NCBI GenBank assembly: GCA_947259705.1
Contig: CAMYNL010000009.1
Location: forward strand, 2,197-66,196
Reading direction: 5' to 3'
DNA from: an uncultured Gammaproteobacteria bacterium
GTDB lineage: Bacteria; Pseudomonadota; Gammaproteobacteria; Arenicellales; JAANXG01
DNA: 64,000 nucleotides
Numbering within the stretch: the stretch's first letter is position 1; each line of letters opens with the position of its first letter. A program made the translations under genes and the position numbers. The notes below the pieces were generated by a model. That model was given only the letters and a program-made list of their open reading frames with translations, was not told where the DNA came from and did no database searches. This document shows positions 14,467 to 63,794 of this stretch, one piece after another.

Positions 14467-14516
14467 GGGTGCTGATTCTGGAATTTACTCGGCCGCGCGG
14501 CAATCCGTTTCTTGCG

Positions 14517-43855: not shown

Positions 43856-43995
43856 CGGATATCTTCGCCATGGGGAGACAGGGGCATTGTAATCCACCGC
43901 CGGGGACCGTTGAACACGGATGCACCGGCTGCGTCGGGTCGTGTCGTCGCGCCGCCACCCGTCAATCACCCTGCTGACGGCGACGGCTTCAGCGG

Positions 43996-46705: not shown

Positions 46706-48001
46706 GTGTTGCTACCGAGTTTAGTATCAGAGGTTGCTGAGTCGCTGTTATGCGCGTTGCCCGAGGAGTTTGACCAGCGAATCCGCGACGTAATGTACCA
46801 GGTTGCCTCCGCGACCCAGGATCAGGGCGTGTTTCTTGTCCACTTTCAAGGAGAAACCGGCCGCTCGTTGTTCCTCGAGTGTCGCGGTGGCGCGGACAAC
46901 AGCCGGGATCCGATCGAACTCAGTCTCCCGCACACCACCTTCTCGACCTGGCTGCCTCGTGTCTATGCTTTGGAGCCGATCTACATCGAGGACGCGGCAA
47001 AGCACCATATCCATTCCAAGCCGACGCAGCGCTTCCTACGCCAGAATCAGTTCAAGTCCCTGATGATAGTGCCCCTCAACTGCCGGGGCTTCGCGGTGGG
47101 ATTCTTCGGCCTGGCGACGCGCGAGCATACCAAGGTCTGGGACGAGCCCGTCCGGGACGAACTGATGCGTCTTGGGGGGGTGCTCGGAAATGTATTCGAC
47201 CGGGACCACATGGAGCGTCATTTTGGGCGCCTCATCCGGTCGCGGCGCGAGACCCGCAGGCGCGAGGTGGAAGTGCAGGAACAGGAGCGGCGATACCTGG
47301 CGCGCGAACTGCATGACCAGATCGGGCAGCTTCTGACCGCAATAAAGACTGAGGCAGCCTTGATTGCCGGCAAACGCGATGTCGAGGAGCCTATACTCAA
47401 GCACGCGCAGGCCATACAGCAGCAGGTGAACCAGATTTATGATTCCATTCACGATCTCATCAGCCGGCTGCGCTCGACGGTACTGGATCAGCTCGGACTG
47501 GAAGGCGCGGTACGCAGCTACCTGATGGACTCCACCGTGGCTAAACTGGGGATCAGGTATGACGTCGATATGAGCGGCGACATGGAAGGCGTGGAGGACG
47601 CAGTGGAGATGACATTGTTTCGTATCTTCCAGGAATGCATTACCAATGTGGCGCGCCACTCTCGGGCGAAAAACGTGTCAGTCATCCTGGAACGCGGATG
47701 CGTACCGATCGAGGATCGTCGCACTCGCTACCGGGGTATCGACGGGGAGCGCAAGAAGGAGATACTTAGGCAGGATTTCGTGCGCCTGGTGGTGCGTGAC
47801 GATGGCTGCGGATTTGACGCGGAGAACATGGCGCCGGGAATGGGAATCATGGGAATGGCAGAACGCATACAGGCGATAGGGGGCCACTTGGACGTCAAGT
47901 CCGAGCCGGGATTCGGAACGACGGTCACTTCGATGGTGAACCTTGCGGTGATTGTACAAACAGAGATCGAGCGGGGAGCTGAAAATGAACATCATGGCTG
48001 A
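46706..48001 (+). CDS. GAF-domain sensor histidine kinase (HisKA_3, NarX/LiaS type)
   Basis: 431 aa, GTG start with AGGAG RBS; GAF-like N-half; H-box ARELHDQIGQLLTA; HATPase N/G boxes (ECITNVARHS; DDGCGFD; GMGIMGMAERI). Confidence 0.88.
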   Translation: MLLPSLVSEVAESLLCALPEEFDQRIRDVMYQVASATQDQGVFLVHFQGETGRSLFLECRGGADNSRDPIELSLPHTTFSTWLPRVYALEPIYIEDAAKHHIHSKPTQRFLRQNQFKSLMIVPLNCRGFAVGFFGLATREHTKVWDEPVRDELMRLGGVLGNVFDRDHMERHFGRLIRSRRETRRREVEVQEQERRYLARELHDQIGQLLTAIKTEAALIAGKRDVEEPILKHAQAIQQQVNQIYDSIHDLISRLRSTVLDQLGLEGAVRSYLMDSTVAKLGIRYDVDMSGDMEGVEDAVEMTLFRIFQECITNVARHSRAKNVSVILERGCVPIEDRRTRYRGIDGERKKEILRQDFVRLVVRDDGCGFDAENMAPGMGIMGMAERIQAIGGHLDVKSEPGFGTTVTSMVNLAVIVQTEIERGAENEHHG

Positions 48002-48653
48002 GTCAGCCGAAAACTCACGGGTGTTGTTGGTCGACGACCACAGTGTGGTGCGAGCGGGCTTTCGCATGTTGCTGGACGAACAGACGGATTTTGAAGTTGC
48101 CGAGGCGGAAAGCGGCGAGGAGGCCTGTGAGTGGATCCGGAACAACGACGCCGACGTAGTGGTGATGGATATCGCCATGCCGGGTATGGGAGGACTGGAA
48201 GCCATGCGTCGCATCCTGGTGCACAAACCGGAGACCCACATCCTGGTCCTGAGCATGTTCGAGGATGACGTATTCCCTATGCGGGCGCTGTCCGCGGGTG
48301 CAAGCGGGTTCATCAGCAAGCGGGTGGCGCCCGATGTGCTGATCGAGGCGATCAACACGGTGCTGCGCGGAGAGAAATACCTGACGCCGGAGACGGCCAC
48401 TCGTCTCGCCTCCAAGCGTTTTTCCAAGTCCGACGACCCGATCTCAGAACTGTCCGAGCGTGAATTCGAGATCGGCTTCCGCCTGTCAGAAGGAGAAAGT
48501 GTCTCCGAGATAGCGGATGTGCTCAGCCTGAGCGTTAAAACAGTGTCCAACCACCGCTTGAATATCCTGCGCAAACTGGGCGCAAAAAACGCGGTGGAGC
48601 TGGCGCACCTGTTTATGAGCCACGGAATCGCTAACAAGAAGCCCGCGGACTGA
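47985..48653 (+). CDS. LuxR/NarL-family response regulator
   Basis: Trimmed to MNIMAESAENSRVLLVDDHSVVRAGF; receiver Asp (VVVMDIAMPGMGG); C-terminal LuxR HTH (LSEREFEI...SVKTVSNHRLNILRKLG). Confidence 0.9.
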   Translation: MNIMAESAENSRVLLVDDHSVVRAGFRMLLDEQTDFEVAEAESGEEACEWIRNNDADVVVMDIAMPGMGGLEAMRRILVHKPETHILVLSMFEDDVFPMRALSAGASGFISKRVAPDVLIEAINTVLRGEKYLTPETATRLASKRFSKSDDPISELSEREFEIGFRLSEGESVSEIADVLSLSVKTVSNHRLNILRKLGAKNAVELAHLFMSHGIANKKPAD

Positions 48654-49349: not shown

Positions 49350-50741
49350 TCACGCAACCGGCTGTTTGCAATCCTGTCGCAGTCGCTGCAGCAACCGCTG
49401 ATGAATGCCGCCGAATGCGCCGTTGCTCATGATGACTATGTGGTCACCGCGTCGCGTTATGCGGATCGCTTGCTCGATCAGATCCGGCACCGAGTCAAGC
49501 ACCTGCGTTCGGTCGTCATTCAAAGATTCTGCGTCCCACTGCAGGCTTTCGGGCCGGTAGATCAGCACACGGTCCGCTTCCGCGAGTGAACCGGCGAGCG
49601 ATTCCCGATGCGCACCCATCCTCATGGAATTGGAACGGGGCTCCAGGAGGCAGACGATCCGGGACCCGTCCACGCGGGCCCTGAGCGCCGCCAGTGTCTC
49701 CTTGATCGCGGTCGGGTGGTGCGCGAAGTCGTCATAGACCTTGATTCCCCTCACGTCTCCGATCAGTTCCAACCTCCGTTTAACCGAGGCGAACCCCGGC
49801 AGCGCCGCCACCGCAGCGCCGGGACTGACGCCGGCATGATGGGCGGCCGCAATGGCGGCCAGCGCGTTCAACATGTTGTGGCGTCCGACCAACCGCCAGT
49901 CGGCCTGCCAGCTTCGACCTGCGCCGTTGGAGATATCGAAGCGGGAACAGTCCGCAGCACGCGGGATGCCCAGCCATGTGGACTTCCCGATGTCGATGAT
50001 AGCGGAATCCGCGGCGAAGTAGATCACGTCGCTCCAGTACCCCATGCCCATGACCTCGGCCAGGTTCGCGTCCTCGCCGTTCACAATGAGACACCCGCGA
50101 CCGGGGACGGTTCTCACCAGGTGGTGAAACTGGGTCTTGATCTCGTCTAGATCCTTGAATATGTCAGCATGGTCGAACTCGAGATTGTTCAACACCAGGG
50201 TGCGCGGATGGTAATGCACGAACTTGGAGCGTTTGTCGAAGAATGCAGTGTCGTACTCATCGGCCTCGACCACGAACGCAGGCCCCGATCCAAGCCGCGC
50301 CGAATGGCCGAAGTTCTCCGGCACGCCGCCGATCAGAAAACCGGGCTCCAGCCCGGCGTGATCCAGGATCCAGGCCAGCAGGCTCGCGGTGGTGGTCTTG
50401 CCGTGGGTTCCGGATACCGCCAGGACCCAGCGGCGCTGCAGTACCCGCTCCGCCAGCCACTGCGCTCCGGAGGTATACGGCAAATCGTTGTTCAGCACAG
50501 CCTCCACGCAGGGGTTTCCCCGCGACAGCGCATTGCCGATGATCACCAGGTCCGGGCCGAAGCGCAGCATCTGCTCCGCCGCATAGCCTTCGTGCAGCTC
50601 GACGTCCAGCTCGGCCAGCTGGGTACTCATGGGTGGGTACACCTGCGCGTCACAGCCGCCGACGGTGAACTCCAGCTGCCGCGCCAGGCGCGCGATGCCG
50701 CCCATGAAGGTGCCGCAGATCCCGAGTATGTACAAGCGCAT
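49350..50741 (-). CDS. mpl: UDP-MurNAc:L-Ala-gamma-D-Glu-meso-DAP ligase (murein peptide ligase)
   Basis: Trimmed to MRLYILGICGTFMGGIARLARQL; Mur ligase P-loop SGTHGKTTT; ATGA overlap with the upstream gene. Confidence 0.88.
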   Translation of the reverse strand: MRLYILGICGTFMGGIARLARQLEFTVGGCDAQVYPPMSTQLAELDVELHEGYAAEQMLRFGPDLVIIGNALSRGNPCVEAVLNNDLPYTSGAQWLAERVLQRRWVLAVSGTHGKTTTASLLAWILDHAGLEPGFLIGGVPENFGHSARLGSGPAFVVEADEYDTAFFDKRSKFVHYHPRTLVLNNLEFDHADIFKDLDEIKTQFHHLVRTVPGRGCLIVNGEDANLAEVMGMGYWSDVIYFAADSAIIDIGKSTWLGIPRAADCSRFDISNGAGRSWQADWRLVGRHNMLNALAAIAAAHHAGVSPGAAVAALPGFASVKRRLELIGDVRGIKVYDDFAHHPTAIKETLAALRARVDGSRIVCLLEPRSNSMRMGAHRESLAGSLAEADRVLIYRPESLQWDAESLNDDRTQVLDSVPDLIEQAIRITRRGDHIVIMSNGAFGGIHQRLLQRLRQDCKQPVA

Positions 50742-51274
50742 CAGCCGAGGAAGCTCAGAAACAGGAGCAGCAGCACGGAAGTGAAAATCCAGCAACCGAT
50801 GGTAAACAGTACCCCGAGGCCCATACGTACCTCCAGCGCCTCCTTGAATATGTGCGCGAAAATCAGCAGCAGCCAGACCCGCAGGCCAAGAAGTAACAGG
50901 GTCGGGGTATTGGCGGCGGCGGTCCCCTGGGCATTCACCATCCACTGAGATACCGGCCACATGGCCAACTGCACCAGGGTGTTGCCTGCGAACATCGCGG
51001 AAAGGGTCTGACAAAAGCGTTCGGATTTGAGGGCCAGGCGCAGAATCAGCCAGATGGTCAGCGCAAAGAAAGCATGCTCTGCGATGGCCAGGGGCACGAT
51101 GGGAATCTCCTGTCCGACGACCTGGGTAAGTTGCGAACCCACAACCTCCAGAGCCAGCACGTAGGAGAGCGTGGAGGCGCTCGCCAGCAGCCCGAGCAGC
51201 GCCCAGGAGTATGGCAGGTCCTGCGGTTTGGCCTGTAACAGCGCCAGGTCCACGATGGTCTTCAAGGGATTCAC
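50741..51274 (-). CDS. Hypothetical integral membrane protein
   Basis: Hydrophobic 4-5 TM ORF coupled to mpl. Start uncertain (GTG 51274 proposed; the ORF-track start at 51373 would collide with rnd). Confidence 0.5.
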   Translation of the reverse strand: MNPLKTIVDLALLQAKPQDLPYSWALLGLLASASTLSYVLALEVVGSQLTQVVGQEIPIVPLAIAEHAFFALTIWLILRLALKSERFCQTLSAMFAGNTLVQLAMWPVSQWMVNAQGTAAANTPTLLLLGLRVWLLLIFAHIFKEALEVRMGLGVLFTIGCWIFTSVLLLLFLSFLG

Positions 51275-51372
51275 GGATCGGTTCCGCCGCGGCGATGCAT
51301 GGGGTACGAGGGCCGGATCATAGCAATCGTTGCGATCCCGCTCCAATACGGCGCCGGGGCCGAATTGGTACA

Positions 51373-52533
51373 ATGCGGGATATGGATAAACATGTCATCA
51401 CCACCCAGCCGGAGCTGGAGAAGCTTTGCCGGTCCGGTGCGGGTTGCGAGTGGATCGCCCTGGACACCGAGTTCATGCGCGTTCGGACCTACTACGCGCG
51501 GCTTTGTCTGGTCCAGATAGCCGATGAACGCGAGATCGCCTGTATTGATCCGCTGGCAGCCGGACTGGATCTTGCCCCGCTGCAGGCGCTGCTGTCGGAT
51601 GGCGGGGTAACCAAGATCATCCATGCCGCCCGGCAGGACCTGGAAGTGCTCTTGCAGGCGCTCGGGGTTGTGCCCACACCGGTGTTCGATACCCAGGTCG
51701 CCGCGGCCCTGCTGGGCCATGGCGATCAAATCGGCTACGCAGCGCTGGTCGAGGCTATCGTTGGGAAGGCACTGGACAAGGCCCACACGCGAACGGACTG
51801 GTGCGAGCGTCCGCTCTCTCGCGAGCAGGTGGAGTATGCGCTCGACGACGTGCGCTACCTGGGTGAACTCTGTCTGGAGCTGCGCTCCCGGCTCGCCGCC
51901 GCGAGACGACTGGATTGGGCACGCGCAGAGTGCGCGCTGTTGACCGAGCCGAGGCTCTACGAGCAGGACCCGCAGCAGGCGTATCTGCGCATGGGGCAGG
52001 GACACCGCCTCTTGCCCACGCAGCAGCATATCCTCAAGCAACTGGCTATCTGGCGGGAATCGGTAGCGCAAAGACGTAACCTGCCCCGCAACTGGGTTGC
52101 CAGGGACAAGCTGCTGGTGAACATTGCCTTGGCGATGCCCGTCGATGCGGGCGGTTTGGGCCAGCTCGACGAGATGCCGCCACAGTTCCTGCGGCGCCAT
52201 GGAAAGGAAGTGCTGGACTTGGTGACAGGGGTGCTCCGGCGGCAGCCGGCGGAACCGGTGTGGCAGCGGCGTGAAAAACTGACCACCATCCAGCGGCGGA
52301 CCGCTGATCAACTGATGGCTGCACTGACCGCCGTGGCGGCACGGCAGCACATTGCCGCGCCAATGCTCGGTACCCGTCGTGACATGGAAAAGCTCGCCCG
52401 CGGCGACACCGGCGTGCCCCAGTTCCATGGGTGGAGACGGGAGCTGCTGCAGGACGCCCTTTCGCGGGTACTGCGGGACACGGGTCCCATCGACGACGCA
52501 CAGCCGGGCCGCTCCGTGTCCAGTCCCGGCTAG
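51373..52533 (+). CDS. rnd: Ribonuclease D
   Basis: Trimmed to MRDMDKHVITTQPELEKL...; DEDD exonuclease motifs (ALDTEFMR; HAARQDLEVL; YALDDVRYL); HRDC-like C-terminus. Confidence 0.9.
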   Translation: MRDMDKHVITTQPELEKLCRSGAGCEWIALDTEFMRVRTYYARLCLVQIADEREIACIDPLAAGLDLAPLQALLSDGGVTKIIHAARQDLEVLLQALGVVPTPVFDTQVAAALLGHGDQIGYAALVEAIVGKALDKAHTRTDWCERPLSREQVEYALDDVRYLGELCLELRSRLAAARRLDWARAECALLTEPRLYEQDPQQAYLRMGQGHRLLPTQQHILKQLAIWRESVAQRRNLPRNWVARDKLLVNIALAMPVDAGGLGQLDEMPPQFLRRHGKEVLDLVTGVLRRQPAEPVWQRREKLTTIQRRTADQLMAALTAVAARQHIAAPMLGTRRDMEKLARGDTGVPQFHGWRRELLQDALSRVLRDTGPIDDAQPGRSVSSPG

Positions 52534-52590: not shown

Positions 52591-53571
52591 ATGACGGACC
52601 TGGTCACCGGCGCCAGTGGATTTATCGGCAGCCATCTGGTAGAGGCCTTGGTGTCGCAGCGACGCCCCGTGCGCTGCCTGGTGCGCGACCGGCAGCGATT
52701 GCGGTGGCTGGCGGGACAACCTGTTGAAATCGTCGAGGGAGACTGCGCAAGGCGGGAGACCCTGACGGAGGCCACGTACGGGGTTGATCGAGTGTTCCAT
52801 ATTGCCGGAGCGTCCTGGGCCGCCACCGCAACCGAGTTCTACCGACAGAACGCAACCGGCACCCGCAATCTGCTGCAGGCCTGTGCGTCCAACGCGCCCC
52901 AACTGCGGCGGTTCGTACTGGTGTCCAGCCAGGCCGCCAGCGGACCAGCGAGCGGTCGCGGGACAGTTGGGGAAAACGATCCGCCGCGGCCCGTCAGTGC
53001 CTACGGTGAGAGTAAACTGGCTGCGGAGCGTTATGCACAACAATACCGTGATCGGATCCCGATCACTATAATCCGCCCTTCAACGGTGTACGGACCTAGG
53101 GATCGGGCGTTTTTGCCCTATTTTCGCTTGGTTCGTCGCGGTTTCCTGTTAGAATTTGGCGCTGGCGCGCGCGATGTCAGCTTGTGTCACGTTTCCGATC
53201 TGGTCGCGGGCTTGATGCAGGCGGCCGATAGCCAATCGGCCTCGGGATCGGTATATTTTGTTGCGGACTCAGAACCGTATTCCTGGCAAAGGGTCGAAGA
53301 GATGGTGTGCGGCATCCTGGGGGTCAGCGCAAAACGGTTGATCCTCCCGGGGTGGATGCTCTATGTAATTGGCAGCCTGGGCCAGGTTTTCAGCGCGGTA
53401 AGCCGCGTACCGGTGCAACTTAATCGTGCCCGAGCCGCGGAATTGCTAGAGCGCAGATGGGTGTGCGACACCAGTCTGGCGCGGCGAGAATTGGGCTACG
53501 AGTCAAGAACGACATTAGAGGCTGGACTTCGGCAATTAGTCCGCTGGTATGAACAAGAAAATTGGTTATGA
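52591..53571 (+). CDS. NAD(P)-dependent extended SDR (epimerase/dehydratase/reductase family)
   Basis: 326 aa; TGASGFIGSHL Rossmann motif; catalytic YGESK; ATGA-coupled to the downstream alpha-oxoamine synthase. Confidence 0.85.
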   Translation: MTDLVTGASGFIGSHLVEALVSQRRPVRCLVRDRQRLRWLAGQPVEIVEGDCARRETLTEATYGVDRVFHIAGASWAATATEFYRQNATGTRNLLQACASNAPQLRRFVLVSSQAASGPASGRGTVGENDPPRPVSAYGESKLAAERYAQQYRDRIPITIIRPSTVYGPRDRAFLPYFRLVRRGFLLEFGAGARDVSLCHVSDLVAGLMQAADSQSASGSVYFVADSEPYSWQRVEEMVCGILGVSAKRLILPGWMLYVIGSLGQVFSAVSRVPVQLNRARAAELLERRWVCDTSLARRELGYESRTTLEAGLRQLVRWYEQENWL

Positions 53572-54824
53572 CACACCGGTCACTCGCTAAGCAGGACATT
53601 GTCGGTCGGGTAGATGGTCTCTTGGAAGTTCCGGCGAAGCGCGCCGGCATCTTTGACAAGTGCCGCAAATTCACGCGTGCGCAGGAACTGATGGCGGTCG
53701 GCCTTTATCCGTATTTCCACAAGGTCGAGTCGGCGCAGGAGCCCGAGGTCGTTTGCGACGGGCGCCCGATGATCATGATGAGTTCCAACAATTACCTCGG
53801 GCTCACCAACCATCCCAGAGTCAAGGAAGCGGCGATCGACGCCGTGAGGCGTTATGGCACTGGCTGCGCGGGTTCCCGATTTCTCAACGGCACTCTGGCC
53901 ATACACGAGGAGCTGGAAGACCGTCTGGCAACATTTCTCGGCAAGCAAGCGGCGATCGTCTTCCCGACGGGGTTTCAGGCCAACCTTGGTGCTATTTCCG
54001 CCCTGGTCGGGAAGAATGAACTGATCGTGATCGACAAGATGAATCACGCCAGTATCTTCGACGGTTGCCGTCTGTCTTTCGGCCAGATAAGGAAGTTCCG
54101 GCACAACGACATGCAGGACCTGGAGCGCATCCTGGCCAGCAACGAGGGACGCGGTGCCCTGGTGGTGGTGGATGGCGTGTTCAGTATGGAGGGAGATATC
54201 GCGGATCTGCCGGGGCTGGTCGACGTGTGCGGCCGATATGGCGCCGGCATCATGGTGGATGATGCCCATGGCTTGGGTGTGCTGGGCGAGAACGGGCGCG
54301 GGACCGGCGAGCATTTCGGCATGGAAGATGACATTGATCTCGTCATGGGCACCTACAGCAAGTCCCTGGCAACAATCGGCGGATGCCTGGCGGCAGACAG
54401 TGACGTCATCGATTACCTGAAACACCATGCAAGGTCCCTCATGTTCTCAGCCAGTCTGCCCCCGGCACCGGTGGCGGCTGCGCTGACGGCGCTGGACATC
54501 ATCGAAAGCGAACCTGAACGGCGCGAAAGGTTGTGGCGCAATGCACGTTACCTGGCAGAGGGTTATCGCCAGCTGGGGTTCGATATCGGTACCAGCGAAA
54601 CACCGATCATCCCGGTGATGGTCGGGGACGAGGAGAAGGTGCTGGTGATGTGGCGCCGACTTTTTGATGCCGGAGTTTTCGCCAGCCCGGTGCTCTATCC
54701 GGCGGTACCACCCGGCATGGCACTGATTCGCACGAGCTGCATGGCTACCCACACCGTGACCCATCTGGATCAGGTCCTGGACGTATTCGGCCGGGTCGGT
54801 CGTGACATGGGCCTGCTCAGTTAG
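53568..54824 (+). CDS. Alpha-oxoamine synthase, serine-palmitoyltransferase-like
   Basis: N-terminal FTRAQELMAVGLYPYFHKVES...MMSSNNYLGL; PLP-lysine motif GTYSKSLATIGG (SPT-like rather than BioF/KBL GTxGKA); DDAHGLG; RTSCMATHT. Confidence 0.8.
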   Translation: MTHRSLAKQDIVGRVDGLLEVPAKRAGIFDKCRKFTRAQELMAVGLYPYFHKVESAQEPEVVCDGRPMIMMSSNNYLGLTNHPRVKEAAIDAVRRYGTGCAGSRFLNGTLAIHEELEDRLATFLGKQAAIVFPTGFQANLGAISALVGKNELIVIDKMNHASIFDGCRLSFGQIRKFRHNDMQDLERILASNEGRGALVVVDGVFSMEGDIADLPGLVDVCGRYGAGIMVDDAHGLGVLGENGRGTGEHFGMEDDIDLVMGTYSKSLATIGGCLAADSDVIDYLKHHARSLMFSASLPPAPVAAALTALDIIESEPERRERLWRNARYLAEGYRQLGFDIGTSETPIIPVMVGDEEKVLVMWRRLFDAGVFASPVLYPAVPPGMALIRTSCMATHTVTHLDQVLDVFGRVGRDMGLLS

Positions 54825-54934
54825 CCGATCATCATTGGGCTGGCCTCCTCTCAATTCCCTGCCTTGAAGCGCTGCTCCCGGCCGAGGAGATGGCTTCGGG
54901 CTTGCAGCTTCTCCACCGACCAGGAGGGCGCGTA

Positions 54935-55990
54935 ATGGTCCGGCGCAGCTTCCTATCGTGTGCGGTAATAGTTCTGCTCGCGGTCTGCGGACCGTTGCCG
55001 GCCTCGGAGGACGATCTCCGTCCGCAGTTGCTTCAGGACGAGCTCTATACCGAGGGCTGGGACTACTATTTTCTCTTCGACGACGGCACCTGGGTCACCG
55101 TGCAGACCTTTATCAGCAACTTCGGCCCCGGGAATCATCGCGGGCTGGTGATCGGCACGATCACGAAAGCTGATGACGAATCCATAGTTATCAAGAACGG
55201 GCGCCCGAGGGAAAAATGGCAGTTCTCCGAGTCCGGATATGACTTCAAACTCGCCCGACATCATCTGATGGGCGAGTTCCCCGACTACCGGCTGCGGCTC
55301 CGCAACCGTCGTGGTGAGCTGGAGATTGATCTGACCGCTACGGCCCCGCCATGGCGGCCGATGACTGGACAGGTCTCGGAGGAACGGCACTACGTATCCA
55401 TGTTTCTGACCCAGCTGCGTGCCGAGGGGCGCTACCGTTCGGGGGGCGATGGCGATGCTGAAGCGCCCTGGCGACGTTTGCAGGGGGGGGTGGGTTACGC
55501 AGTGCGTTACCTCAACGCTAAGTCGTTGTCGAAGGTCGCATCCGGGTGGCTGAGGCTGGCGCCTTGGCAGGCCGAGGGGGATGACAAGCCTCTATTGCTG
55601 CTGCTCACACAACCCGATGGACAGCAAACCAATCATATGGCCCTGCTCACCGGAGACGTCATCCGCTGGCAAGGCAGTGGATTTTCGGTAAGTTACGAGG
55701 AAGCCGTCAGCATGGTGCCCAACGGTCACCTGATCCCGCAGACAATATCACTGGACGTGGAGCATGGAGGAACCTCCATCTCGGGCACGGTCCGGGTGCG
55801 GCAACTGTTGCAGCGATTTGATTTCGTTGGTGAACTTAAGAACCTGGAGCGGATTTTCGTTCGCTTCATTAATACGCCCATCCACTATCGCTACCTTGCC
55901 GACTACGATTTCCAGGTAAGAGACAGCGGGGGCGTGCGCCGCTTGACGGGAAGCGGCTTTGCGGAGTACATGACCCTGAAATACCAGTGA
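54935..55990 (+). CDS. Secreted hypothetical protein (beta-rich; possibly AttH/CrtC lipocalin-like)
   Basis: Trimmed to MVRRSFLSCAVIVLLAVCGPLPASE (signal peptide) with an AGGAGG RBS. EGWDYYFLFDDGTWVTVQTFISNFG is reminiscent of the AttH-like fold; the family call is tentative. Confidence 0.55.
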   Translation: MVRRSFLSCAVIVLLAVCGPLPASEDDLRPQLLQDELYTEGWDYYFLFDDGTWVTVQTFISNFGPGNHRGLVIGTITKADDESIVIKNGRPREKWQFSESGYDFKLARHHLMGEFPDYRLRLRNRRGELEIDLTATAPPWRPMTGQVSEERHYVSMFLTQLRAEGRYRSGGDGDAEAPWRRLQGGVGYAVRYLNAKSLSKVASGWLRLAPWQAEGDDKPLLLLLTQPDGQQTNHMALLTGDVIRWQGSGFSVSYEEAVSMVPNGHLIPQTISLDVEHGGTSISGTVRVRQLLQRFDFVGELKNLERIFVRFINTPIHYRYLADYDFQVRDSGGVRRLTGSGFAEYMTLKYQ

Positions 55991-56035
55991 TGGCCGCGCC
56001 GCTGGTCGAAACAACGGGCTGTTGAAGACCTCGAA

Positions 56036-58495
56036 GTGAGTACATTCGACGACGATTCCATCTCCGACAGGCCACGATGGGCCGGTGCCGTCGCAAGCGG
56101 CGTCATCCGCGGCTACCTGTTAATACTGCTCGCAACCGGGGTTTCCGGATACTACAGCTTCGATCTGGCCAAGTCGCTGAAACTGAACACTGACATCGTT
56201 TCTTTGATGCCGGAGGGTGTGCCCAGCGTCGACAACCTGCAGCGGGTAATCGAGAAGACCGGCGGTTATGCGAATGTCATGGTGCTGGTGGAGTCCACGG
56301 ATCCGGACGCCGCGCTGCGATTTCTGGATGACCTGCGCGACGAGCTGCTGCAATTGGATTGGGTAAGCAGTGCTGAGTACGCGGAGGACACGGCGGTTTT
56401 TCAGCGTAATCGGCTGCTCTATGTCGATGTGGAAGACCTTCGGGTAATCAACGAGCGACTGGCCGCGCGTATAGACTACGAAAAGAAGAACATCACTTTC
56501 AGCGTAGAGGACACGCCGGTTGAAATCACCATACGTGGCGCTGAGAGAAGGCTACCTTCGCTGGATTTCCAGGACATCAAGAAGAAGTACGAAGGCGAGC
56601 AAACCGATACGAAAAAGCAACATGTATTCCGTAACGAGTCTGGAGACCTGACCATCATGGTCGTGCTCCCGCGAGGCAGCACGACGAACGTTTCATATTC
56701 GCGCGAGGTGATCGCTGACATCGACCGACTGGCCAGACAAGTCGATCCGGCGAGTTATCACCCAGAAATGACGGTACTCATCGGCGGTCGTGTCAAGAAC
56801 CTGGTCGCCAAGTTCGATGCCATCATGTCTGATATCCGCGGCAGCGGCCTGTGGTCAATCGCCAGCATCCTGCTGGTGGTGGTGATCTATTACCGCCGTC
56901 TGATGGCGATCTTGTACATAGGGTTGCCGCTTGTGATCGCGTTCCTCTGGACCTTCGGGATAACCCAGGTCTACCTCGGCGGCCTTAATCTCATCACTAT
57001 TTTTTTGGTGCTTATCCTGTTCGGCCTGGGTATAGATTTCGGTATACACAACCTGGCTCGATACGATGAGGTGCGCCGTGATGGCGGCACCATGCGGGAC
57101 GCGCTGGAAACGGTGTACTCGCGCACCGGTCGCGCATCCCTGCTCGCGGGCGTCACCACCGTGGTCGGCTTTTATTCCCTGATGACGACGGACTTCAGGG
57201 CATTTTATGAGTTCGGATTCATCGCCGGCACCGGCGTGGCACTGGCACTGGTCTCCATGTATCTGGTTTTCCCGTCCCTCATGGTGCTGGCGGAGAAGAC
57301 ACGGATCTACCGGGTAATGCGCCGCGATGACGAGAACGCGGGCAAGACCGCCGGCCCGATGCCTTTTGCGCTTCCAATCATTATTGTGGGCACAATCTTG
57401 TGTCTCGTGAGCATCATGCTGGTACCGCAGCTCCGGTTCGAGGATGATTTCGACAAGATCAACACCCAGGTACGGGAGATAAGCAGCCTGAACGGGAAGA
57501 TCAAGCAGGTTTTTCCGCTGAGGTCGGACCGCGCGGTCGTATTTGTGGACACCCTGGAGGACGTCAGCGCCGTGGTGCAGGAAGTCGAAAGAATAAAGCA
57601 GCAGCGCCCCCCGGAAGAAGCCACCATCGAGAAGGTCAAGTCTATCTACAGTGTGGTCCCCAGCTCTGCGGACCAGGAAGACAGATTGCGGGAGATCGAA
57701 CGAATCGATGAGCAGATCCGCGAGGCTGTGGAGATGCTGGAGCAGTTCGGCGAAAAAGACGACGATCGCAAGAAGGAGCTGCAGGAACTGCGCGAGAACT
57801 TCGGAGTGTCTGCACTGCAGCCGAAGGATCTGCCCCCGGCCCTGCAACAGATCTATACAGGTGTGCCGGGATCGGGTGGATACCTGGTCTACATATTCAA
57901 CCTCAAACCGACCTCGAAACTGGAGGACGCACAGGCATTCGTCGATGACATCCGCGAGATTAGGATCAACGGCAAGACCTATCATCCCGCTACCGAGGCG
58001 ATGGTATTCGTCGATATGCTGAATCTGATGAAGGATGATGCCACAGGGGCCGTTGCAGCGGTGCTCGCCGCGATATGCCTGGTCCTGCTGCTCGCTACGC
58101 GGGAATTCAAGAGCGCCGTTTTGGTGCTGATACCGGTGCTGGTGGGGATGTTGTGGATGCTCGCAATCATGGCCGCCCTCGGCATCCGGCTCAACATATT
58201 CAACATGGTCGTGCTGCCCACCGTCCTCGGTATCGGAATCGACAACGGCATCCATATCTATCATCGATTTTGCGAAGAAGGACGTCACCATGTACGGCAT
58301 GTAATCAGGACCACTGGCGGCGCTGCCTTCCTGACCACTTTGACCACCATGCTTGGATTCGCCGGGACCCTCACTGCCTCCAACCAGGGCCTGCAGTCGC
58401 TCGGCCTGGTGGCTTGCATAGGCCTGTTTGCCTGTATGATCAGCTCGCTGACGGTGTTTCCGGCGCTCCTGCAGTCCATCGAAAGGCGTTCCTGA
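56036..58495 (+). CDS. MMPL/HpnN-like RND-superfamily lipid exporter
   Basis: 819 aa; two 6-TM bundles, each after a large soluble loop. Duplicated signature LFGLGIDFGIHNLARY / VLGIGIDNGIHIYHRF. Confidence 0.82.
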   Translation: MSTFDDDSISDRPRWAGAVASGVIRGYLLILLATGVSGYYSFDLAKSLKLNTDIVSLMPEGVPSVDNLQRVIEKTGGYANVMVLVESTDPDAALRFLDDLRDELLQLDWVSSAEYAEDTAVFQRNRLLYVDVEDLRVINERLAARIDYEKKNITFSVEDTPVEITIRGAERRLPSLDFQDIKKKYEGEQTDTKKQHVFRNESGDLTIMVVLPRGSTTNVSYSREVIADIDRLARQVDPASYHPEMTVLIGGRVKNLVAKFDAIMSDIRGSGLWSIASILLVVVIYYRRLMAILYIGLPLVIAFLWTFGITQVYLGGLNLITIFLVLILFGLGIDFGIHNLARYDEVRRDGGTMRDALETVYSRTGRASLLAGVTTVVGFYSLMTTDFRAFYEFGFIAGTGVALALVSMYLVFPSLMVLAEKTRIYRVMRRDDENAGKTAGPMPFALPIIIVGTILCLVSIMLVPQLRFEDDFDKINTQVREISSLNGKIKQVFPLRSDRAVVFVDTLEDVSAVVQEVERIKQQRPPEEATIEKVKSIYSVVPSSADQEDRLREIERIDEQIREAVEMLEQFGEKDDDRKKELQELRENFGVSALQPKDLPPALQQIYTGVPGSGGYLVYIFNLKPTSKLEDAQAFVDDIREIRINGKTYHPATEAMVFVDMLNLMKDDATGAVAAVLAAICLVLLLATREFKSAVLVLIPVLVGMLWMLAIMAALGIRLNIFNMVVLPTVLGIGIDNGIHIYHRFCEEGRHHVRHVIRTTGGAAFLTTLTTMLGFAGTLTASNQGLQSLGLVACIGLFACMISSLTVFPALLQSIERRS

Positions 58496-58525: not shown

Positions 58526-59794
58526 ATGGCAAGAAGCAGACAGAGAGTGAGACAAATTTCCGGAGATCATCGCGCCACCCGCGTGCTTTTTCTGAACAGC
58601 TGTGTGAATGGCGGCGGAGCCGGCCGCAGTCTCGCGGCGCTTCTGAGCGTGCCGCAAGAAGGAATGGAATCCTGGGTGGTGATGCCCGAACCCGGAGTCG
58701 TTGCCGCACACCTGCGAGGGGTTGCCCATATCGAGTATGTGCCGGAATTCGTCGAGCGACTCGGACGGTCGCCCTATGCATGGCCGGACCGGCTCCGGAT
58801 GCAATGGCTGCACGGGCCCGCCAGTGCGTATGCACTGGCGCTTGCGACCCGCAAGATCATTGCGCTGGCGCGGCGCATCAAGCCCGACGTGATTCACTGC
58901 AACCATATGCTCGCCAAGCCGATCGGTACAATGGTCGGCGCTGCCGTGGGCATTCCGGTGGTGTTTCATTCCCGCGCCGTCCATCAGATCCCCATTGACG
59001 GCGCCTTTTACAGCTGGTTGGGAGCCCGCAAGGCGGTGAGCCGGATCATCTGTAATTCGGCAGCCAGCGCGGAGGTGTACCGGCGGCGCAGCGCCGAGAA
59101 GATTACGATCATCCCGAACAGTATCGATGTCTCTGTCTTCAGCCGGCGGCAGACGGCGCCGCGCCTGCGCTTGGAGTGCGGACTCGCCGCTGACGATTTC
59201 GTGGTGGGGTTCGTGGGCCGCTTGCACCCGAAAAAGGGGCTGGACTGGCTATTGCGGTCGTTCGCTTCTCTTTGTCGCGGACATCGCAATTCGGTGTTGG
59301 TGGTGCTGGGTGATAATGATGGCGGCCTGCACTATGACGCCGGGAAGGGCAGCCGGGATCTTGCCGCGGCGCTGGGGATCGGTGAGCGGGTGATCTTCAC
59401 CGGGTTTCGCGATGATGTCCGTCCCTACATGGCCGACTTCGACGTTCTGGCCTTTCCGTCGCGACTGCCGGAGTCTTTCGGCCGGGTGATCCTCGAGGCG
59501 ATGGCACTGGAGGTGCCAGTCGTGGTCGCGGCTCATGGCGGCGCGATCGAGGTGGTGGAAGATGGCCGACAGGGCCTGTGGGTGGAGGTAGAGGACGAGC
59601 CAGGGTTGGCCGACGCGCTCGAGCAGCTGGCCAAAGACGCAGAGCTGCGCCGGCGCATGGGCAGGGCGGGCCGCGAGCGCGTTGCGGCGCTTTACGATGT
59701 CGCGCCGGTCGCCAGGCGGGTGTTCGGGGTGCTGGCGAATGCGGCCCGGGACTGCGGCCCCTTGCGGCGCAGCCTCCCCGCCAGCGAAGGTTAG
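58526..59794 (+). CDS. Glycosyltransferase family 4 (GT-B, Glycos_transf_1)
   Basis: 422 aa; E-x7-E region PSRLPESFGRVILEAMALEVPVV; GRLHPKKG motif. Confidence 0.85.
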   Translation: MARSRQRVRQISGDHRATRVLFLNSCVNGGGAGRSLAALLSVPQEGMESWVVMPEPGVVAAHLRGVAHIEYVPEFVERLGRSPYAWPDRLRMQWLHGPASAYALALATRKIIALARRIKPDVIHCNHMLAKPIGTMVGAAVGIPVVFHSRAVHQIPIDGAFYSWLGARKAVSRIICNSAASAEVYRRRSAEKITIIPNSIDVSVFSRRQTAPRLRLECGLAADDFVVGFVGRLHPKKGLDWLLRSFASLCRGHRNSVLVVLGDNDGGLHYDAGKGSRDLAAALGIGERVIFTGFRDDVRPYMADFDVLAFPSRLPESFGRVILEAMALEVPVVVAAHGGAIEVVEDGRQGLWVEVEDEPGLADALEQLAKDAELRRRMGRAGRERVAALYDVAPVARRVFGVLANAARDCGPLRRSLPASEG

Positions 59795-60606
59795 ATCCGA
59801 CCCGCCATACTGCCCAGGGAAACAGGTGTCAGGCCGCGCGCCCGCAGCCCCTCGAGCATGGCGGGGAGCGCCGTCACCAGGCTGTCCCGGGAACCCATTG
59901 CGCCGGGCGGATAGCCGTCGTGCATCACCACCACGTCGCCGCTCGCGGCCCTCGACAGCAGGCGTTCCAACAGTTCTTCGGGGGGGGGGTTCTGGACGTC
60001 CCAGATCGGGTAACCGTACCCGACCAGGCGCAGCGAGCGCCGCCGCAACTCCGCGTGCAGCATTGGGTTTTTGTATCCCTTGGGACAGCGAAAAAACCGC
60101 GGGCTCACCTGGGTCGCATCCTCGATGCTGTGTTGACAGCGGTCCAGTTCCTCGGCGATCTGCCGACGGGACGCGAACATCAGGTTGCGGTGGGTTTGGG
60201 TATGATTGCCGAGTGTATGGCCCCTGGCCACGATGGCCCTGGCCAGTTCAGGCGCCCGGACTACGTTTTCGCCGATACAAAAGAAACTCGCCTTGGCCCC
60301 GTATTGCTCCAGGATCTCCAGTATCTCCCGCGTGTAGGGCTCCACCGGTCCGTCGTCGAAGGTCAACGCAATCGGAGAACGGTTGTCACTCCCGGGCGGG
60401 ATGCGGACGATAGCGGGGGCGAACAGATTCACCCGGGGATGGAACGCGTCCAACGCCAGTACGGCCAGGATCGCAGAGAACGATCCCATCACTGCGAGCA
60501 CCCAGCCGGGAGCGCCCACGATACCGGTAAGCACGATTATCGCCGCCCAACCCGACAGATAAAGGGCGACGTAAACAAGTATCTTTAGTCGCGCGGCGAA
60601 GGGCAT
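59791..60606 (-). CDS. Membrane-anchored NodB-type polysaccharide/carbohydrate deacetylase
   Basis: Trimmed to MPFAARLKILVYVALYLSGW... (two TM helices); NodB motifs TFDDGP and NHTQTH. Its stop overlaps the GT4 stop by 4 nt (convergent). Confidence 0.82.
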   Translation of the reverse strand: MPFAARLKILVYVALYLSGWAAIIVLTGIVGAPGWVLAVMGSFSAILAVLALDAFHPRVNLFAPAIVRIPPGSDNRSPIALTFDDGPVEPYTREILEILEQYGAKASFFCIGENVVRAPELARAIVARGHTLGNHTQTHRNLMFASRRQIAEELDRCQHSIEDATQVSPRFFRCPKGYKNPMLHAELRRRSLRLVGYGYPIWDVQNPPPEELLERLLSRAASGDVVVMHDGYPPGAMGSRDSLVTALPAMLEGLRARGLTPVSLGSMAGRI

Positions 60607-60655: not shown

Positions 60656-61732
60656 CTATGGTCTGGCACCGGGGTCGGGCAGCAGCTGGGGACCACGCCA
60701 GCGATCGAACATGCTCATCTGATGGACGCACGCCAGGGTACAGGTCGGGCTGCATTCCTTGCGGGTCTTGTACTCCCGGTTCAGGTCAGCGGGCGTGTAC
60801 TCGGTGACAGGAATATTTGGATAGCCACGGCGCTGGGAGCACCAGTGTACCCTGCCTTCCTCACAGATATAGAGGTACCTGGCGCCCGCGCGGCACTGCC
60901 AGTCGTTGGATCGACCGAAGATAAGATTACGCTGGTAAAGACGATAATTCAGCCTGTGAGTCAGGGATTTCGAGACCCGGGTGACCCTGCGATATACAGC
61001 TAGCTGCCTGTCGTTGAGCGGTTTGAGCAGCCCGTTGTGATCATGCAGAACGCCAACCGAGTGGTAAAAGCCGTATCCGGCGGCCGTGTCGGCGACGGCC
61101 AGCGCATCTTCTGTACGTTCCTCGCTAACGCCCAGGACCGAGTTGATGTTCACCTTGAAGCGCGCGTGCTCCGCGAGCAGGGCCAGTTTTTTGTCCACCG
61201 AATTGAGACTTTTCATGGACACCTCGTCCGGCTCGAGATTATCGATGCTGATCTGCATCTCCTGCAGACCGGCGTCGTTCAGCGCTTCAATGCGCTCCTG
61301 GTTGAGTCGGAAGCCGTTGGTGATCATGGTGGCGATCATTTTTCGTCGGCGGATCGCCCGCACCACCTCCGCCAACTGCGGATGCAGCAGCGGTTCGCCG
61401 CCCGTCAGCGTGACTGCGGCCGTATTCAGGGCGGCCAGTGCGTCCACCTGGCGCAGCAACTGGTCCGTGGCCACCGGGGGTGAGAAATCGTCGTACTCGT
61501 TGCAGTAGCCGCAGGCCAGGTTGCAGCGTCGGGTAACGACCACCTGAGCCAGCAGGGGCGTGTGCCTGGTAAGGGTCGCGCGGCGCAGAAAGCGTGCCGC
61601 AGACATCGCATTGTCGACTCTGCGTGAGAGGCTGGATCGCGTCATGAAATCAAATAACTCCGTAGGTCCGACGGCGCGGGTCGCCGGGATGTCTGGTTTC
61701 GAAGGCTTGAAAAATCTTGCTTCGGCCCCCAT
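60656..61732 (-). CDS. Radical SAM protein with Cys-rich (SPASM-like) C-terminus
   Basis: CNLACGYCNEY (CxxxCxxC), GGEPLLHP; C-terminal cysteines CRAGARYLYICEEGRVHWC...CSPTCTLAC. Start may be an internal Met (61645 or later). Confidence 0.85.
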   Translation of the reverse strand: MGAEARFFKPSKPDIPATRAVGPTELFDFMTRSSLSRRVDNAMSAARFLRRATLTRHTPLLAQVVVTRRCNLACGYCNEYDDFSPPVATDQLLRQVDALAALNTAAVTLTGGEPLLHPQLAEVVRAIRRRKMIATMITNGFRLNQERIEALNDAGLQEMQISIDNLEPDEVSMKSLNSVDKKLALLAEHARFKVNINSVLGVSEERTEDALAVADTAAGYGFYHSVGVLHDHNGLLKPLNDRQLAVYRRVTRVSKSLTHRLNYRLYQRNLIFGRSNDWQCRAGARYLYICEEGRVHWCSQRRGYPNIPVTEYTPADLNREYKTRKECSPTCTLACVHQMSMFDRWRGPQLLPDPGARP

Positions 61733-61943: not shown

Positions 61944-62600
61944 ATGACTAACATTCTGAAAATGTTGCCTGTTTTGATTATCGGCGCAAGTTTTGCCGGC
62001 GCCGCCGCCGGCTCGGAATGCGCGACGCGACCCGTCGCCATGACGGAAGACGGCGTGGCCGTGGTTGACGCCAAGCAGAAGGTGGAGATCGAGGCCGACG
62101 AAATCACCTTCCCGCGCCGGAACGTGGTCAAGCTGCGGGGTTATACCCAGTTGATTCGCGGCGGCCAGCGCGTCTACGCCGACGAACTGGTTTACGACAA
62201 GGCGCACGGTGAGGTCGAGGCCCGGGGCGTGGTGAAGTTCCAGTCACCCCAGGGCGACGAGATCCGGACCTCGGTGCTCCGTTACGACATCAATCAGAGC
62301 AGGGCCGTGTCCGGGCCGGCGAACTTCACCATCGCCGCGCGTAAGACGAGCACCCTCGGATCCGGTGACAGCGCAGTCAACGCCCACGGCACCGCCGATC
62401 GCGTTGTCTTCGAACGCGGCGACGTCATGAGGCTCGAGAACGCGGAGGTGACCACCTGTCTGGACGGCAAGGACGACATCACTTTTACCGCCCAGGACAT
62501 CAAGGTCGACCTGAACAAGGGTATACGCACCGCGCGCCGCGCCAAGGTGCAGATTCTAGTCCCCGAGCGCCATTCGAAACTGAAGGGGATGGTCAACTAA
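61944..62600 (+). CDS. Stand-alone paralogue of the LptD N-terminal (OstA beta-jellyroll) domain
   Basis: 218 aa; signal peptide. Aligns by eye (about 30-35% identity) to residues ~55-290 of the lptD product in this window, e.g. VEIEADEI/IELEGDEV, EVEARG/EVEASG, LENAEVTTCLDGKDD/FENVTYTTCNEGNDD. Ends where the LptD barrel would begin. Confidence 0.75.
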   Translation: MTNILKMLPVLIIGASFAGAAAGSECATRPVAMTEDGVAVVDAKQKVEIEADEITFPRRNVVKLRGYTQLIRGGQRVYADELVYDKAHGEVEARGVVKFQSPQGDEIRTSVLRYDINQSRAVSGPANFTIAARKTSTLGSGDSAVNAHGTADRVVFERGDVMRLENAEVTTCLDGKDDITFTAQDIKVDLNKGIRTARRAKVQILVPERHSKLKGMVN

Positions 62601-62735: not shown

Positions 62736-63794
62736 ATGGTAGACCATGTTGACGTATCCGCAGCCGCCCTGCGCAGGTCCGTCGCAGACCTGTTCGACCC
62801 CAAGCCCGCGATCTACTGGCTTGATCTTTGCTTGACCGGGGCCACGGGCTGGCTTGCATTCTCGTTGGCGGTCGCGGTGGCCCCGGGCAGTCCGGCGTGG
62901 GTCGTCTGGACCCTGCTGGCGATACTCGCCTTGTATCGGGCCGCGGTCTTCACCCACGAGCTGGTGCACATTCGCAAGGAGCGGCTACCCGGGTTCCGCA
63001 CCGCCTGGAACCTGATCTGCGGCGTACCGTTGCTGGCCCCCTCCTTCATGTACGACGGCGTGCACCAGGAACACCATTTTCGCAGCCGGTACGGTACCTC
63101 CCGCGACGGGGAATATCTGCCCTTTGGCACACCGCCGCGATCGCGCATCCTGGTTTATTTCGCCTCCCACCTGCTGCTGCCGCCGCTGGCCGTGATCAGG
63201 TTCGGCCTGCTGGCACCATTGTCGCTGTTATCCCAATCCTGGCGGCGGGCGCTGCTGGAACGGGCCTCATCCCTTTCTATCGATCCGGGTTATCATCGCT
63301 CGGTACCCGACCCTGTCCCGGCGAGTTGGGCGCGGCAGGAGTTTGCCTGCGCCGCGTTCGTGTGGGCGGTGGCGGTATCCGTGGTCTCTGGACAGCTGCC
63401 GTTGTCGGTGTTGATGCAGTATTACGTGACCTTGCTGGGAATACTGTTGTTCAACGCGATACGCACGCTGGCCGCCCACCGTTACCGTAATCGGGACCGA
63501 ACGCTCTCGTTTTCGGAGCAACTGGCGGATTCGATCAACGTCACCGGTGGTGGTCTGGCCACGGTCCTGCTGGCACCGGTGGGACTGCGCTACCACGCTC
63601 TGCACCACCTGTTTCCCACCATGCCATACCACAGCCTGGGTGCGGCGCATCGCCGGCTGCTTGAGAAACTCCCAGCGGGTTCCGCTTATCATGAGACCCT
63701 GCGCAGGAACATTCCTCAGGCATTGCGTGAACTGTGGCGCGCCGCGTCGACGATCAACCGCGCAGCGCAGCCTGAACCGCCCGCGGCCTCGTAG
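62736..63794 (+). CDS. Membrane fatty-acid/sphingolipid-type desaturase family protein
   Basis: 352 aa; three His boxes HELVH, HQEHH and HALHH; four or more TM segments. Confidence 0.85.
   Translation: MVDHVDVSAAALRRSVADLFDPKPAIYWLDLCLTGATGWLAFSLAVAVAPGSPAWVVWTLLAILALYRAAVFTHELVHIRKERLPGFRTAWNLICGVPLLAPSFMYDGVHQEHHFRSRYGTSRDGEYLPFGTPPRSRILVYFASHLLLPPLAVIRFGLLAPLSLLSQSWRRALLERASSLSIDPGYHRSVPDPVPASWARQEFACAAFVWAVAVSVVSGQLPLSVLMQYYVTLLGILLFNAIRTLAAHRYRNRDRTLSFSEQLADSINVTGGGLATVLLAPVGLRYHALHHLFPTMPYHSLGAAHRRLLEKLPAGSAYHETLRRNIPQALRELWRAASTINRAAQPEPPAAS

Follow-up and report, generated by a model that had tools for sequence, protein, structure and literature searches.

Which lipid might be made by two overlapping genes that head a probable operon in an uncultured marine gammaproteobacterium? 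The genes lie in a 64,000-nucleotide stretch of DNA from the order Arenicellales (GenBank assembly GCA_947259705.1, contig CAMYNL010000009.1, positions 2,197 to 66,196), which was analyzed as a whole and is referred to here as the window. They encode an extended short-chain dehydrogenase/reductase (SDR) and an alpha-oxoamine synthase (AOS). An earlier interpretation made without database searches, the sequence-only reading, had taken this AOS and its ketoreductase partner for a long-chain-base module. Sphingolipids are membrane lipids better known from animals. The present analysis largely upholds that proposal: the best NCBIfam and PDB matches of the AOS are serine palmitoyltransferases (SPT), and the gene tree, the active-site residues and a cross-phylum synteny of the kind published for cerR-spt point the same way. 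All tests that were run agree with a module of an SPT-like AOS and a ketoreductase, and it is probable, in our view, that the pair forms a cerR-spt type module for the synthesis of a sphingoid backbone.

The gene pair

The SDR gene (52591..53571, plus strand) encodes 326 amino acids and the AOS gene (53568..54824, plus strand) encodes 418. The stop codon of the former (TGA, 53569-71) and the start codon of the latter (ATG, 53568-70) share a single ATGA on the plus strand (53568..53571), a 4-nt overlap that is consistent with translational coupling and that can be read directly from the sequence where the sequence-only reading had placed it. Such overlaps are commonplace in operons. The same overlap is kept in the related loci L083, L084, L086 and L091 (in L086 the SDR ends at 10004 and the AOS starts at 10001) and thus is not a one-off coincidence. 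A mechanical list of open reading frames (ORFs) includes an alternative AOS start, TTG at 53562; the gene call of a metagenome-assembled genome (MAG) and the homolog alignment both favour the ATG at 53568. The same two genes are called on the identical MAG contig GCA_945787095.1 (L001).

The AOS belongs to PF00155 (E=4e-59), the fold-type I enzymes dependent on pyridoxal phosphate (PLP), with K265 as its Schiff-base lysine. The GTYSKS motif that had been singled out as the PLP-lysine motif spans residues 261-266 (54348-54365), and K265 (codon AAG, 54360-54362) aligns with the PLP lysine Lys244 of the Sphingobacterium multivorum SPT. Residues 35-55 (53670-53732), FTRAQELMAVGLYPYFHKVES, align with the N-terminal segment of the same enzyme, which supplies Phe13, Tyr25, Tyr27 and Phe28 to the hydrophobic core that binds the acyl chain. 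The corresponding segment of KBL carries other residues, and E. coli BioF lacks most of it. The segment was previously described as an N-terminal extension. Its association with SPT holds, but by alignment it is no add-on and forms part of the normal SPT N-terminal domain.

Identity of the alpha-oxoamine synthase

The AOS reaches no NCBIfam equivalog cut-off, and its closest family is clearly the CFB-type SPT (NF047600; 548.8 bits, cut-off 640). The other models score, with cut-offs in parentheses, 447 bits (535.4) for generic BioF/Kbl (TIGR01825), 417.3 (500) for the beta-proteobacterial SPT (NF047599), 416 (460) and 339 (493) for KBL (NF005394 and TIGR01822), 415.3 (426.45) for BioF (TIGR00858), 349.7 (670) for the alpha-proteobacterial SPT (NF047603), 247.5 (338.55) for ALAS and 235 (428) for the CqsA type. 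Against PDB the top match is the S. multivorum SPT with 449 bits, ahead of any KBL or BioF by more than 125 bits; it is followed by Thermus AOS/KBL (322), Sphingomonas SPT (~310), KBL (294), CapB (281), SulA (249), BioF (231) and CqsA (146). BLASTP identities rank likewise, with 52% to the S. multivorum SPT, 44% to Thermus AOS/KBL, 40% to E. coli Kbl and 36% to E. coli BioF.

Contacts to PLP, L-serine and the acyl chain were taken from the high-resolution S. multivorum SPT structures (PMC10196870) and mapped onto the AOS. Active-site and acyl-pocket residues are identical at 22 of the 26 positions, namely N74, G102, S103, F105, N107, H160, S206, D231, H234, T262, S264 and K265, as well as F293, A295, Y47, Y49 and F50, among others; several of the conserved SPT residues differ in KBL and BioF. 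Four positions (Ser81, Asn85, Ser243 and Ala274 in S. multivorum) show little or no variation within the SPT-like clade and differ in KBL and/or BioF, and the AOS has the SPT-type state at all four (S103, N107, S264 and A295). In the crystal complex of SPT with serine a set of residues surrounds the side chain of the substrate, and the AOS keeps every one of them.

A neighbour-joining tree of 80 sequences, among them the S. multivorum SPT, E. coli BioF and Kbl, Coxiella KBL and Thermus AOS/KBL, separates SPT-like proteins from BioF, KBL and Thermus AOS/KBL with 100/100 bootstrap support. Sphingomonas SPT, CapB, SulA, CqsA and ALAS are outside the tree and were ranked by PDB scores only. The AOS of the window falls in a monophyletic Arenicellales-type group (100/100), nested in a large clade that holds the S. 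multivorum SPT and AOS proteins of many phyla; its closest named homologs are from Arenicellales MAGs. It does not branch inside BioF or KBL, a placement that the sequence-only reading had named as one that would refute it.

By sequence comparison, then, the AOS is neither BioF nor KBL. As candidates both were rejected: BioF at 36% identity and a score below its cut-off (415.3 against 426.45), with bioA, bioB, bioC and bioD not found nearby, and KBL at 416 against 460 and 339 against 493, with tdh not adjacent. No bio genes or tdh adjoin the SDR-AOS pair in the window or in L083, L084 and L086. CapB and SulA were also set aside; their similarity is clearly lower (281 and 249 bits against 449 for SPT), which disfavours a sulfonolipid product, and no ORF resembling cysteate synthase was seen among the cluster ORFs scanned. 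The earlier claim that the protein has features of SPT and cysteate acyltransferase, not of BioF or KBL, stands for SPT and is disfavoured for the CapB/SulA part. A tblastn search of the window with its own AOS, E. coli BioF and Kbl, Thermus AOS/KBL, Coxiella KBL and the S. multivorum SPT detected no second AOS.

The reductase and its synteny across phyla

The SDR matches the Epimerase family PF01370 (E=7.5e-38) as an extended SDR, and displays TGxxGFxG at residues 6-13, Ser112/113 and Y138xxxK142. These motifs (T6-G13, S112/S113, Y138-K142) are kept in at least 90% of 30 Spt-adjacent SDRs. The Pfam match, the motifs and the synteny together identify it as a putative CerR-type 3-keto reductase, and the synteny is the decisive evidence for this role. 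The AOS alignment was used to retrieve 80 genome loci, and these were searched by tblastn for SDR homologs within 10 kb. A homologous SDR (28-57% identity) lies at most 10 kb from the AOS in about 50 of the 80, usually directly adjacent and upstream. These loci come from Nitrospirota, Desulfobacterota, Acidobacteriota, Planctomycetota, Methylomirabilota, Gemmatimonadota and Bacteroidota, among other phyla. Directly downstream of the AOS, 37 loci encode a protein of ~375 amino acids with a weak GNAT signature, and in 12 loci a PAP2_3 protein resembling sphingomyelin or inositol phosphorylceramide synthases is encoded near the AOS. Genes for Spt, the GNAT-type ceramide synthase bCerS and the NDUFA9-like CerR are "often found clustered", and this clustering has been used to define Spt-like proteins (PMC11334938; PMC11087976; PMC11324152). 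From synteny and motifs we infer bCerS as the identity of the GNAT-like neighbour and a CerR-type role for the SDR.

A Zn-dependent dehydrogenase is encoded about 2 kb upstream of the SDR-AOS-GNAT cluster in L008 (5650-6768) and in four similar loci from Nitrospirota. A link to Tdh and KBL through this protein was rejected, as it scores 156 against a Tdh cut-off of 458 and is equally like scyllo-inosose dehydrogenase, both far below cut-off. Its role may lie with inositol head groups and not in threonine/KBL metabolism.

The Arenicellales-type loci

The Arenicellales-type clade comprises seven loci: the window, L003, L083, L084, L086, L091 and L095. All seven share a block in which the SDR and AOS genes are followed by a gene of no assigned family and an MMPL transporter gene, the latter being kept downstream of the pair throughout. 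The block is set in a conserved neighbourhood of dsbA, mpl, a small membrane protein and rnd, with a radical-SAM gene and a small LptD-N-like gene downstream. Among the other genes of the window are core chromosomal ones (mreBC, PBP2, rodA, lptD-surA, mpl and rnd). With the Arenicellales MAG homologs, the host looks like an Arenicellales-type gammaproteobacterium, in line with the lineage proposed from the letters alone.

No bCerS candidate came to light: a hidden Markov model made from 38 GNAT-like proteins encoded next to related AOS genes had no match in the window, L003 or L083-L086 (best E=4.3). The ORF that follows the AOS was considered as a divergent bCerS and ruled out, since its product is an all-beta secreted double lipocalin and not a GNAT fold. 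A strict regular expression for the phosphopantetheine motif of acyl carrier protein (ACP) found no instance in the six frames of the window, which is weak negative evidence, and no dedicated AcpR/AasR or LptF2/G2 was detected in the cluster of the window. The three ceramide genes of Bacteroidota often lie apart from one another (PMC11334938).

Proposed pathway and alternative explanations

The pathway that we propose begins with the AOS as a soluble PLP-dependent SPT of the CFB type (Bacteroidota/Nitrospirota), which would condense L-serine with a long-chain acyl thioester to 3-ketosphinganine. Since dedicated genes for an ACP or an acyl-ACP synthetase are missing nearby, acyl-CoA or housekeeping acyl-ACP is the probable acyl donor. 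Bacteroidetes Spts reportedly take acyl-CoA, while the alpha-, beta- and gammaproteobacterial enzymes prefer a dedicated acyl-AcpR (PMC11324152); the AOS of the window would presumably use acyl-CoA or the bulk acyl-ACP. The coupled SDR would reduce the 3-keto group, either on the free base, as in the eukaryote-like order, or on the N-acylated product, as in the Caulobacter-like order, with N-acylation performed by an enzyme encoded elsewhere. Head-group enzymes could then decorate C1 (a GT4 glycosyltransferase and a CE4 deacetylase in the window, CDP-alcohol phosphotransferases in relatives), the MMPL/RND transporter could extract the lipid from the inner membrane, and the Svf1/AttH-like double lipocalin could bind or carry it in the periplasm. 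Condensation and reduction are predicted from homology, active-site conservation and synteny; the head-group, export and carrier steps are suggested by gene neighbourhood and fold analogy. We infer likewise the serine substrate, the order of steps, N-acylation elsewhere and the roles of carrier and exporter.

Several observations weigh against this pathway. The AOS scores below the curated cut-off of the CFB-type SPT (548.8 against 640) and also below those of the beta- and alpha-proteobacterial types, and its amino-acid specificity is not readable from sequence alone. The best curated match of the SDR is the uncharacterised HpnA, with 151 bits far under the cut-off of 368, and the SDR has no visible signal peptide, although Caulobacter CerR is reported to be periplasmic (PMC11087976). 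A bCerS-like gene was not found in the window, nor within 8-10 kb in the six relatives, so that ceramide is only a possible product. A literature search on Arenicella lipids returned nothing relevant.

The score below the SPT family cut-off leaves some room for a related amino-lipid built on another amino acid, such as alanine or glycine (giving 1-deoxy bases), cysteate (giving capnine or a sulfonolipid) or threonine. The S. multivorum SPT accepts Ala, Gly, Thr and homoserine at low efficiency (PMC10196870), and CapB and SulA are homologous AOS enzymes that are paired with reductases. However, the full set of residues around the serine side chain and the lower CapB and SulA scores argue against such a substrate, and the large ORFs between 51 and 64 kb are all accounted for, none being cysteate-synthase-like; we regard this explanation as unlikely. 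The product might instead be a long-chain base, either free or modified with a head group, that is exported as a single-chain amino-lipid or signal without passing through a ceramide synthase. This would explain why bCerS, adjacent in sister clades, was not found beside the genes in any of the seven Arenicellales-type loci; yet the unlinked ceramide genes of Bacteroidota make absence nearby, over the 64 kb searched, weak evidence, and we rate a pathway that stops at the base as rather improbable.

Database annotations would favour a housekeeping BioF or KBL beside an unrelated sugar epimerase, the adjacency being incidental. The IMG names are "8-amino-7-oxononanoate synthase" and "nucleoside-diphosphate-sugar epimerase", and the AOS falls just short of the BioF cut-off (415 against 426 bits). 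This is very improbable in view of the tree and scores, which group the AOS with SPT, of the lack of adjoining bio genes or tdh, and of the SDR-AOS pairing that is kept across phyla together with the GNAT gene. An autoinducer synthase like CqsA or LqsA, making an alpha-hydroxyketone signal, would belong to the same AOS superfamily and would fit the two-component system about 4 kb upstream (46706-48653). The CqsA scores are, however, the lowest of all (235 bits in NCBIfam, 146 in PDB), the kinase is not conserved beside the cluster in L083, L084 and L086, and a membrane lipid agrees better with the presence of MMPL, lipocalin and head-group genes, so that such a signal synthase is the most improbable of these explanations. 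A cerR-spt type module is the reading that we retain.

Downstream genes

The gaps between the SDR, AOS, lipocalin, MMPL and GT4 genes are -4, 110, 45 and 30 nt. No terminator-like site was found between genes within this series, and a scan for promoters and terminators yielded nothing above background; the pair probably heads an operon.

The gene after the AOS (54935..55990, plus strand) encodes a predicted Svf1/AttH/CrtC-like tandem lipocalin of 351 amino acids with an N-terminal signal peptide. It lies between the AOS and MMPL genes in L003, L083, L091 and L095 as well. The protein of the window has no Pfam or NCBIfam match; its family numbers about 208 representatives in an exhaustive HMMER search, and among 50 aligned homologs 14 match Svf1_C (best 5e-16), 4 match CrtC and 2 match Svf1. 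An AlphaFold (AF2) model built on 50 family members is all-beta with a pLDDT of 91.7 and predicts two consecutive lipocalin-like beta-barrels. Foldseek aligns this model with the pericyclases CghA, Fsa2 and Phm7, AttH NE1406 (2ich), kievitone hydratase and a 25-phosphosteroid lyase (E 4e-12 to 4e-8, TM 0.53-0.62; probability 1.00 to CghA, Fsa2 and AttH). For CghA, Fsa2, AttH and kievitone hydratase the E values run from 4e-12 to 5e-9. By analogy with these folds the protein is a candidate periplasmic lipid carrier, or possibly a lipid-modifying enzyme. In three members of the family (P0222, P0245 and P0267) the lipocalin is fused to a CDP-alcohol phosphotransferase. Three further loci, L093, L096 and L097, contain more distant members of the lipocalin family without an AOS, in a recurring set with a CDP-alcohol phosphotransferase and a MOP flippase; inositol-1-phosphate synthase and a nucleotidyltransferase are encoded near this set in L093 and L096. 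The set looks like an uncharacterised inositol-lipid module. In L094 a CDP-alcohol-phosphotransferase/lipocalin fusion is encoded beside a DAGK-type lipid kinase and a fatty-acid-desaturase-family protein.

Next in the series is the candidate lipid exporter, an MMPL/RND-superfamily transporter of 819 amino acids (56036..58495, plus strand; Pfam MMPL, E=2.4e-33). Its scores against the HpnN-like (304.6 bits, cut-off 752), HAE3 (208) and BstA (205, cut-off 1400) models are all below cut-off. The GT4 glycosyltransferase (58526..59794, plus strand; 422 amino acids; Glycos_transf_1, E=5e-37), a possible head-group transferase, resembles the GlcNAc-transferring MshA, BshA and GlcNAc-PG synthase, all under cut-offs, and is absent from L003, L083, L084 and L086. 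Convergent with it is a CE4 polysaccharide/GlcNAc deacetylase (59791..60606, minus strand; Polysacc_deac_1, E=4e-33; gene call from the identical MAG contig). It is a possible partner of the GT4 enzyme, converting GlcNAc to GlcN, with a presumed functional link to the cluster. In L083 (14989-16314 and 18454-19743) and L095 (9303-10610) long CDP-alcohol phosphotransferases that are inositol-phosphate-transferase-like replace the GT4 and deacetylase genes, and L084 and L086 have no head-group genes. Close relatives thus seem to differ in the head group of the predicted lipid.

Beyond the deacetylase lies a radical-SAM protein gene (60656-61732, minus strand) that is conserved downstream in L003, L083 and L086; its product has a MoaA-like N-terminal core and no SPASM match. 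Just past the cluster, at 61944-62600, a secreted protein of 218 amino acids is encoded that resembles only the N-terminal beta-jellyroll of LptD/LptA (E 3e-7). The gene is kept beside the radical-SAM gene in the same three loci, and it is an extra paralog, as the window also contains a genuine full-length lptD-surA pair (compare 16333-18576). A fatty-acid-desaturase-family protein (62736-63794; PF00487, E=8e-25) has no specific NCBIfam assignment; it could be a sphingolipid desaturase or hydroxylase, and a similar desaturase is the one found in L094. Upstream of the pair, an ORF of 210 amino acids (50741-51373, minus strand) has no Pfam or NCBIfam match, and in L083, L084 and L086 its positional counterpart between mpl and rnd is an ORF of 169-232 amino acids without a Pfam match. 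Elsewhere in the window an 844-aa ORF (41435-43969, minus strand) and a 263-aa ORF (14439-15230) have no Pfam match at E<=1e-8.

Taken as a whole, the operon might constitute a self-contained system of sphingolipid synthesis and export, in which the lipocalin takes the lipid from the MMPL/RND transporter across the periplasm by a route distinct from the Caulobacter LptF2/G2 route, perhaps assisted by the LptA/LptD-N-like protein, and in which a canonical bCerS might be dispensable. We offer this as a tentative and somewhat doubtful proposal; if true, such an operon would be the first bacterial counterpart of the eukaryotic Svf1 ceramide transfer.

Comparison with known systems

Spt-like proteins have already been predicted in ~40 phyla, including a minority of Proteobacteria (PMC11334938). 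The SDR-AOS pair belongs to the known cerR-spt kind; the transport genes that surround it are less familiar. In the literature searched, we found no description of a CFB-type Spt/CerR pair fixed in a gammaproteobacterial clade, of the absence of adjacent bCerS, AcpR or LptF2/G2, or of such a pair linked with an MMPL transporter, a secreted lipocalin like Svf1 and head-group cassettes that can be exchanged. Public annotation obscures the likely role: the IMG names for identical or nearly identical proteins of 52591-58495 are of the BioF type, sugar epimerase, "hypothetical protein" and "predicted RND superfamily exporter", so that a sphingolipid function is invisible in databases. The transit of sphingolipids to the outer membrane has been called "a mystery" in a 2026 preprint, with an MmpL route guessed from a single Myxococcus neighbourhood. 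The locus and its clade relatives offer a compact, testable candidate system for sphingolipid export, and gammaproteobacteria would hold a second, independently derived type of sphingolipid cluster.

The reference system is that of Caulobacter crescentus, whose spt, cerR and bcerS are CCNA_01220, CCNA_01222 and CCNA_01212 (Stankeviciute et al. 2022, as cited in PMC11334938 and PMC11087976). Both systems have a PLP-dependent Spt and an adjacent extended SDR of the NDUFA9/epimerase type, and relatives of the window AOS in many phyla carry the full SDR-AOS-GNAT trio. The window differs in having no nearby bCerS-like gene, dedicated AcpR/AasR or LptF2/G2, and its Spt is of the CFB/Nitrospirota sequence type (549 bits to the CFB model against 350 to the alpha-proteobacterial one). 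The LptD-N-like protein recalls LptC2 of the Caulobacter sphingolipid locus. The closest structural reference remains the S. multivorum SPT (PDB 3A2B, 8GUH), with which the AOS is 52% identical over 382 residues; equivalents of the PLP lysine, His138, Asp210, His213, Ser81, Asn85, Ser243 and Ala274 and of the acyl-pocket aromatics are kept, whereas the window protein has ~23 extra N-terminal residues, scores below the curated cut-off and lies in a different genomic context.

Sphingolipid clusters are documented in a few gammaproteobacteria, which qualifies the earlier view that such lipids are atypical of the class. Those of Azotobacter vinelandii, Pseudomonas luteola and E. coli UTI89 follow the Caulobacter pattern, in which aasR, acpR, cerS and lptF2/G2 are present, and are supposed to be of alphaproteobacterial origin (PMC11324152). 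The known clusters are of a different type: the window shares with them the class and the clustering of genes, but it has none of aasR, acpR, cerS and lptF2/G2, and its CFB-type Spt is accompanied by an MMPL transporter and a lipocalin.

For the export genes the parallels are more distant. In Myxococcus xanthus an MmpL gene downstream of spt has been speculated to encode a sphingolipid exporter (bioRxiv 10.64898/2026.04.12.717747). Here, too, an MMPL gene lies downstream of the spt-like gene; the Myxococcus case is an untested remark, and the window adds the Svf1-like lipocalin between the two genes. A hopanoid link was considered and rejected on the scores and because shc, hpnH and other hopanoid genes were not found in the window. 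HpnA and HpnN, with BstA, are nonetheless the best or near-best curated matches of the SDR and the transporter, and the logic is analogous, a lipid pathway with an RND exporter to the outer membrane; the scores are far under cut-off (151 against 368, 305 against 752 and 205 against 1400), and genes for the biosynthesis of hopanoids or sterols are absent from the window. In yeast, Svf1 accommodates ceramide between its pair of lipocalin domains and has been implicated in ceramide transfer from the endoplasmic reticulum to the Golgi (PMC10038888). The lipocalin of the window has in common with Svf1 and the bacterial AttH/CrtC proteins the two-barrel fold, a sphingolipid-related context and family members that match Svf1_C, Svf1 and CrtC. 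It differs in having no significant Pfam match of its own and in being secreted by a signal peptide, whereas Svf1 is targeted by an amphipathic helix. Other members of the AttH/CrtC fold are enzymes (hydratases, pericyclases and a lyase), and the protein encoded between the AOS and the transporter possibly has a catalytic role as well.

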